Assembly (NCBI GenBank): GCA_030295235.1
Contig: AP026133.1
Coordinates: 186,001 to 250,000, forward strand
Source: Fistulifera solaris
Lineage: Eukaryota
DNA: 64,000 bases
Reading direction: 5' to 3'
A model generated the notes under the pieces. That model made no database searches, was not told where the DNA came from, and worked only from the letters and a program-made list of their open reading frames with translations. Below are positions 1,913 to 2,639 of this stretch, one piece after another; position 1 is the stretch's first letter, and each line of letters begins with the position of its first letter. A program made the translations under genes and the position numbers.

Positions 1913-2639
1913 TTACTGTGCACCGTAATCACATTGATATTCCGATTGTGACAGAATTAAGGCCGCAATTAATCCATACAATCCCAAGTTGGACGCAAAT
2001 ACTTGAATCAACACGGTTCCCACAAATAGCGCATCACCACTACTCGTGACTTGTCCACCACTATCTCCCGTAAATCCCATTTTCTTCCATGACGCCGCCA
2101 TATGCGATTGCGCTCCGACCGCCCTTGTGCCGGCATCGGCCGCAATCCCAATCGCCAATCCCGACGCCAAACTGCACAAGCCACAACACAAGCCGGCCGC
2201 GAGGTGCGAAAAGCCATTGTATTGTGAATAGGTAGCAAACCCGTCCGCCGCGGGCATGGTAAATTTTCCATTCAAAATAACGGCGACAATGAGTCCATAA
2301 ATGCCCAAAACACCCGCCATGACGACTGGAATAATATTTTTCATTAACAGTTCGGGTGATCGGACGCCCATGGCCATGAGACCTTGTCCCGCTTTGGCCG
2401 TCCCGTACGCGCCGCCGAGGTCTTTTTTTGGGGGGAGAGAGAGTGAGAGAAAGGTGACTGTCAGAGAACAAACACAGATGATCTTATCAACAATCATTAC
2501 GTTGAAACGACGACTTACTCGCAAAAACGACCGCACTAGCAATTCCGGCAAAGCCCAATACGGGTGCCCAATGAGGACACGTATAACTGAAATTCGCATC
2601 ATTGAGACCATTGTTTTCGTAATAATTCTGTTCGGCCAT
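1913..2639 (-). CDS. V-ATPase 16 kDa proteolipid (subunit c)-like protein, atypical; intron 2422-2518
   Basis: ATG at 2639 gives MAEQNYY...[16 protein letters not shown]; a gtaagt...aag intron joins it to [12 protein letters not shown]...[21 protein letters not shown], which is typical of subunit c; TM4 reads FASNLGLYG instead of FAEVLGLYG. Confidence 0.9.

Follow-up and report, generated by a model that had tools for sequence, protein, structure and literature searches.

To our knowledge, the eukaryotic V-ATPase rings solved so far, those of yeast, mammals and plants, have one transport glutamate per protomer. The diatom Fistulifera solaris possesses a gene for a protein of the subunit c type with serine at the place of this residue. 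The locus raises the question whether this is a damaged copy or a subunit maintained without a proton site, and what such a protomer would do in a rotor.

Gene and predicted product of paralog A

The gene, here termed paralog A, was analysed in a window of 64,000 nucleotides (G000:C8:186001-250000) of a 51.7 Mb assembly with paired contigs. The gene and the sites discussed below are located in the window as follows.

2639-1913 (-): gene of subunit c paralog A; ATG at 2639, stop codon TAA, one intron
2519..2639 (-): exon 1, residues 1-40 and the first base of Asn41; luminal N-tail and most of TM1
2422..2518 (-): intron, GT..AG, 97 nt, from the gene model and from the joint 2421/2519 in run contigs
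1913..2421 (-): exon 2, rest of TM1, TM2, TM3, insert, TM4, luminal tail and stop
2586..2594 (-): N-glycosylation sequon N16-F-S18 in the N-tail, read from the sequence and presumed to be used
2267..2356 (-): TM2, residues 63-92, with Gly77 (2314-2312) at the position of the c'' Glu
2036..2107 (-): 24-aa cytosolic insert S146-G169 with the motif M148xxSWK[KR]MGF157
2003..2005 (-): Gln180, one turn before the lost Glu; Leu in c, Glu in c''
1991..1993 (-): Ser184, codon TCC, at the position of the proton-binding Glu
1988..1990 (-): Asn185; Ala or Val in c
1931..1933 (-): Cys204 in the luminal tail; also present in canonical diatom c

Translation of the gene model yielded a product of 209 aa without internal stops, identical to the database protein P0003, which is named FisN_2Hh110 and FisN_2Lh110 of Fistulifera solaris in its source records. 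The original prediction of an otherwise intact gene thus held, although the 97-nt intron had been absent from it. Profile searches gave scores above the cut-offs of PF00137 (82.1 bits vs 24, E 3.4e-23, in two stretches) and TIGR01100 (122.2 vs 61.45, E 9.9e-36), which together with the two hairpin repeats places paralog A in the V-ATPase proteolipid family. The profile of Na+-binding rotors of the NtpK type, NF005124, remained far below its cut-off (34.9 vs 127 bits).

TM4 of paralog A could be aligned without gaps to plant and mammalian c (FAEALALYG and FAEVLGLYG), with Ser184 falling on the Glu, so that the mid-TM4 Glu of proton-carrying c and c' subunits is replaced by serine. As had been pointed out before, the TCC codon at 1993-1991 matches GAA/GAG in none of its three positions; the C7 homoeolog has the same TCC AAC codons and encodes an identical protein. 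TM2 reads MAGVLGIYG, with Gly77 where c'' has its transport Glu (FCEA), indicating that paralog A has no proton site at all. No compensating acid was conserved in TM2 or TM4 of the aligned homolog rows, and the sole invariant acid in the helices, D136, is common to canonical c. Asp at position 41, present in 40 of 102 rows, was considered as a compensating acid and rejected: 15 of 16 named entries have Asn there, and the Asp rows are most simply read as read-through of the intron acceptor.

Compared with the canonical c of the same diatom, TM2 was the most similar helix (22/24 identical over residues 69-92), followed by TM3 (26/36), TM4 (21/29) and TM1 (21/35); residues 1-105 of exon 2 were about 67% identical, and the F, L, L, L of the TM4 outer face were unchanged. 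Instead of the short TM3-TM4 loop of c and c', paralog A has the 24-aa insert S146-G169. The insert had been predicted correctly, but the loop that it replaces is QQEK in this diatom's own canonical c and not QQPR as had been assumed. Cys204 probably forms a luminal disulfide with Cys21; both cysteines are also present in canonical diatom c.

A structure model of paralog A, computed from 85 sequences (pLDDT 75.5), predicted helices at residues 25-58, 63-92, 107-154 and 166-197, corresponding to the four-helix fold of subunit c in this predicted model. Its best structural matches were V-ATPase c chains, with a TM-score of 0.91 (target-normalised) and an rmsd of 2.0 against rat c; identity in the structural alignments was 41-47% to c and 22-31% to c''. 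Residues 159-165 of the insert had a pLDDT below 50, while the first half of the insert may form a cytosolic helix that extends TM3 to residue 154, with the topology assigned by homology.

Contigs assembled from four sequencing runs covered the locus. The joint 2421/2519, in which the intron 2422-2518 is skipped exactly, occurred in contigs of two of the four runs, and the Ser184 codon was covered by contigs of all four with no other letter listed there. Reads restoring the Glu, which would have spoken for a sequencing error, were thus not found. Away from this codon, the four covering contigs listed deviate from the window in the way that the C7 copy does, where this was checked; the run contigs mix letters of both homoeolog copies. 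Since the runs stem from one study and are only guessed to be RNA, only the splice joint counts as evidence; no run recorded as RNA was found to hold paralog A in the run search. The two homoeologs differ by 40 synonymous changes over 209 codons (dS 0.34), and the single nonsynonymous step given by the dN/dS method is a path artefact. The marks of a pseudogene (relaxed selection, a broken frame, no transcript) were not found in paralog A. The identical proteins at dS 0.34 and the splice joint argue against a decaying copy.

No repeats beyond chance were found around the gene. Head to head with it lies an ABC1 atypical kinase gene (3322 to about 5775, +), which also adjoins the C7 copy. An open frame at 2-1624 (+) contains a DHH domain, an EF-hand pair, DHHA1 and two CBS domains, with a partial match, far below cut-off, to the N-terminal part of the model for A-adding tRNA nucleotidyltransferase; the EF-hand within a DHH/CBS protein looks unusual.

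Conservation and the proteolipid gene set

A homolog search with paralog A returned 7079 matches, the best 120 of which (79-100% identity, self included) were compared. The motif Q[VI]FA[SG]N occurred in 120 of 120 listed clusters and the Glu motif in none of them. Gln180, Asn185, Gly77 and Cys204 were each kept in 120/120 listed clusters, as was the loop motif MxxSWK[KR]MGF, and the absence of the c'' Glu from TM2, noted earlier for paralog A, is thereby a general trait of the listed clusters. At the Glu site itself we observed Ser in 59 and Gly in 61 of the 120. The predicted conservation of the Ser-Asn pair therefore applies to Asn185 and not to the serine, and the invariants of the family are the loss of the Glu, Gln180 and Asn185. 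A sequon preceded the first Cys in 51 of the 58 ortholog rows with a parsable N-terminus (of the 120 listed), as against 1 of 22 for paralog B, described below.

Named diatom orthologs range from centric to raphid forms: Leptocylindrus, Corethron, Stephanopyxis, Eucampia, Odontella, Attheya, Grammatophora, Cyclophora, Thalassiothrix, Entomoneis, Craspedostauros, Seminavis, Epithemia and Pseudo-nitzschia, many of them from transcriptome sets. Further orthologs belong to the Parmales (Bolidophyceae; Tetraparma gracilis, a scaly parma), and no named member outside diatoms and Parmales occurred among the best 120 of the 7079 matches. With the insert and trait columns removed, the six rows of this clade that were tested grouped together with a support of 100/99 in a tree of 26 rows. 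A region search from the Tetraparma protein gave 24 candidates and four matches. No orthologs of paralog A were identified in T. pseudonana or P. tricornutum, and the sin1-cluster entries (2233, 39417, 37665 and others) were not matched; a search of the ESM Atlas returned the general family only. In one entry, P0143, the first half is that of paralog A and the second half that of canonical c, the switch lying in the TM2 common to both; it is probably an assembly chimera, and its row was kept in the trees.

Judged from these sequences, paralog A is an ancient and selected V-ATPase c paralog of diatoms and Parmales, proton-blind, intact and spliced. The original proposal of a non-translocating c paralog is accordingly supported by its conservation, the spliced joint and the strong purifying selection between homoeologs. 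It did not extend to the Parmales orthologs, nor to the second Glu-less paralog and the c''-like signature of TM4 described below.

Each subgenome of F. solaris holds two canonical c genes, one c'' gene and four insert-bearing paralogs, of which A and B lack the Glu while C and D bear it.

C5/C6 of G000, L003:1336-1992 and L004:1335-1992: paralog B, whose TM4 contains QVFAGN and whose TM2 has an Asn; its insert is basic
C38/C39 of G000, L009, L010, L012 and L014: paralogs C and D, in tandem, Glu-bearing, with long TM3-TM4 inserts
C30/C31: c'', a separate gene with a normal TM2 Glu

The separate c'' gene and the Gly in TM2 of paralog A led us to reject a misannotated c''. Paralog B showed both QVFAGN and MAGVNG in 120 of 120 listed matches (the best 120 of 429, self included); its relatives include Ditylum and P. 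tricornutum, with XP_002176957.1 as the ortholog of the latter. Across homoeolog pairs of the four insert paralogs, dN was 0.002-0.020 vs a dS of 0.17-0.49. One of the canonical c copies, on C15 (L006, minus strand, about 1450-1462), is out of frame with its C16 homoeolog because of an additional T within a T run, probably a one-base assembly error.

Both of the two subunit a genes (G000 C1/C2, L018-L028) keep the essential Arg motif; they lie about 35-40 kb apart in opposite orientation and have near-identical C-terminal helices. For subunit d, the genome search showed one locus in each subgenome. It gave neither an additional d nor an Arg-less subunit a that might have co-evolved with paralog A; its gene counts are lower bounds.

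The TM4 of paralog A resembles the blank helix of c'': it reads Q-V-F-A-[SG] where c'' of both F. solaris and human reads E-I-F-[AG]-S. This Glu of c'', four residues before the position that corresponds to the c Glu (-4), is dispensable for pumping. For yeast c'', PMC8804929 gives S192 as the counterpart of the Glu in c. Among 74 parsable TM4 sequences of 150 representatives, Gln or Glu at -4 occurred in 10 of 12 Glu-less and in 0 of 62 Glu-bearing rows, which are not independent, most of the ten being paralog A or B. The two Glu-less representatives without the Gln are P0212 and P0268, both c-like proteins with Gly at the site. P0212 groups with the C/D clade, a quick tree being among those behind this placement, as does P0222, a further Glu-less c-like protein that has Gly there and lacks the Gln. 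Outside diatoms, a c paralog of the haptophyte Prymnesium parvum combines Gln at -4 with Ser at the Glu site (P0159, P0308 and P0162, from P. parvum and relatives). A single record of the nematode Acrobeloides nanus (P0273) has the same two residues and, like paralog B, Asn in TM2; its row forms a clade of its own (96/97) on a long branch. The best tree kept the haptophyte Glu-less forms apart from the diatom ones, but the AU test did not reject a joint clade (p-AU 0.061); a single origin of the two is not favoured by these alignments. For paralog A, the c''-like TM4 pattern is likelier to reflect convergence, the rest of the helix being c-like.

A possible V-ATPase ring protomer without a proton site

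In yeast, blanking of c' E145 or c'' E108 fully inhibits the pump (Roh et al. 2020, PMC7541076); the reason given there is that the rotor cannot pass a stretch of three or four helices without a Glu. The c'' E108G mutant is described, in the accessible part of Khan et al. (PMC8804929), as failing on stringent plates and growing on YPD plus Ca2+. We enumerated the seats of one Glu-less protomer in a ring assumed to have ten members, the number found in yeast, plants and mammals. The largest gap was three or four helices at eight seats and two only at the seat c(1), which lies beside the Glu-bearing helix of c'' and still allows steps of 126/108/126 degrees. Taken together with the yeast mutants, the enumeration suggests that a ring with the blank protomer in any seat but one should stall, so that a changed H+/ATP ratio is conceivable for this one seat only.

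We tentatively favour, at somewhat less than even confidence, the reading that paralog A is a proton-blind four-helix ring protomer, present at about one copy per ring and most likely at c(1), in a pump with nine sites. Paralog A would then be a component of Vo c-rings alongside normal c, c'' and a normal subunit a. From the c(1) seat it would keep the Glu-free gap at two helices, and the pump would turn with 9 sites instead of 10, at an H+/ATP ratio of 3.0 vs 3.33 and with a limiting gradient about 11% higher, and would lose its two-Glu resting state. Gln180 and Ser/Gly184 may mimic the Glu and Ser of the c'' blank helix and let a neutral helix pass the Arg of subunit a, and the invariant cytosolic helix could be a docking or sorting tag. 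The tests run here showed no preference of paralog A for the c'' face. Since no ten-member ring with two blanks kept the gap at two, the existence of two Glu-less paralogs means that the seat model needs A and B in different rings.

Rather unlikely, in our view, is a separate heteromeric ring of A, B, C and D, with or without c'', that would be non-pumping or differently geared and act as a scaffold, fusion factor, pore or pH sensor. The four divergent paralogs do share the position of the insert, purifying selection acts on each of them, QVFA[SG]N is common to A and B, the latter adding a TM2 Asn invariant in 120/120 listed matches, C and D have a Trp in TM1 where c'' has one, and the relatives of the C/D clade include the Glu-less P0212. 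The grouping of A with B, however, reached a support of only 87/86 with the trait columns and was lost without them, TM2 of A is near-identical to that of canonical c, unlike those of B, C and D, and a special a or d subunit was not found.

We also consider it unlikely that paralog A serves as a brake or leak seal, entering any seat and slowing or stopping the ring in order to tune acidification or to park Vo during assembly or transport. A poison subunit has no obvious need of an invariant Gln and Asn, a sequon and a loop motif, and its effect would be irreversible for each ring, while dissociation of V1 from Vo gives reversible control of the V-ATPase. The c-like helices needed for entry into the ring are nevertheless kept, a dedicated a or d partner was not found in the genome, and eight of nine seats give a gap of three or four helices, reported to be too long for ATP-driven rotation (PMC7541076, in the part available).

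An improbable alternative is a ring-assembly factor or another role outside the ring: paralog A would work in the ER or Golgi while the c-ring closes, as a chaperone or placeholder, and would leave the mature pump. The modelled c fold and the luminal sequon, both kept, would suit such a role, which also fits weakly with the absence of paralog A from the names in the silica deposition vesicle (SDV)-enriched proteome, as far as PMC9894196 is available; the outer helices facing lipid and subunit a are, however, near-invariant, more than a placeholder seems to need. More improbable still is a changed substrate, with Gln180, Ser/Gly184, Asn185 and a nearby Tyr as a neutral polar site for Na+, water or silicic acid. 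Two amides are invariant exactly at the former ion site, paralog B has a third in TM2, and the organisms named for clade A belong to silicifying groups. The Na+ and H+ sites known from rotors depend on a carboxylate, though, which is conserved in neither TM2 nor TM4; the c'' pattern accounts more simply for the residue at -4, which also turns up in the haptophyte and the nematode. Decay or sequencing error, for which only the loss of the Glu itself and the probable one-base error in the C15 c gene could be adduced, can practically be dismissed in view of the same codon and identical proteins in homoeologs at dS 0.34, the 120/120 listed Glu-less homologs and the spliced contigs.

According to the parts available, the diatom V-ATPase acidifies both the SDV (PMC9894196) and the space around the plastid (10.1101/2022.05.26.493626), and a ring variant could thus bear on silica formation and carbon concentration. 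The SDV-enriched proteome of T. pseudonana names, in the accessible part of PMC9894196, one proteolipid only, of 16.9 kDa. That no 209-aa paralog is named there is weak evidence, because its T. pseudonana ortholog was not identified and c'' is not named either. As a broader and speculative extension, unlikely to hold as a whole, diatoms and Parmales might build position-specific rotors from the four insert c paralogs. Proton-blind protomers in fixed seats beside c'' would leave fewer sites than protomers (9 of 10), with a higher limiting gradient and no two-Glu resting lock, the cytosolic helix would address the ring to the silicifying or periplastid membrane, and haptophytes and nematodes would have arrived anew at the blank-helix solution, with a Gln one helical turn ahead of the missing Glu.

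A natural Glu-less protomer tests how large a Glu-free gap the rotor tolerates, bears on what the asymmetry of c'' is for, and directs attention to a gearing or braking of the V-ATPase that has so far gone unstudied. Knockout and tagging of the paralog genes are feasible in model diatoms.

Comparison with known V-ATPase and prokaryotic rotor subunits

Our literature search found no description of a Glu-less diatom c; a 2014 work by Bussard and Lopez, reportedly on diatom V-ATPases, may bear on its novelty. Such a protein does not appear in the available portions of PMC2784329, 10.64898/2026.07.01.735876, 10.64898/2026.10.01.756066, PMC13403384 (with one supplement file), PMC7972479 and PMC4976316.

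With V-ATPase c (yeast Vma3, ATP6V0C, plant VHA-c; PDB 6vq6_g, 7uw9, 36qu_g), paralog A has in common the four-helix fold, the TM2 motif, the TM3 Asp and the LYG motif. It differs in lacking the TM4 Glu, in Gln at -4 and Asn at +1, in the 24-aa cytosolic insert and in a longer luminal N-tail with a sequon. Fungal c' (Vma11) keeps its Glu (E145), unlike paralog A. The last helix of c'' (yeast Vma16, ATP6V0B) lacks the transport Glu as that of paralog A does, but c'' carries one in TM2 (FCEA), where paralog A has Gly. On the evidence of its sequence, paralog A is thus a member of the proteolipid family with neither the defining residue of c and c' nor that of c''. Protomers without a transport Glu have been engineered in yeast as c'' E108G and c' E145 mutants; these are loss-of-function constructs, whereas the state of paralog A is natural and selected in diatoms and Parmales.

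Among prokaryotes, rotors with fewer ion sites than hairpins are represented by the A. woodii hybrid c-ring (PDB 4bem), E. hirae NtpK (PDB 2bl2) and Pyrococcus c. Varying the ions per hairpin changes the ion/ATP ratio in prokaryotic rings, as described in the part available of 10.64898/2026.10.01.756066, and paralog A bears on whether eukaryotic H+/ATP ratios are tuned by ring composition as in some prokaryotes. The prokaryotic four-helix subunits, however, keep one site each, whereas paralog A has none and belongs to a eukaryotic system with the asymmetry of c''.
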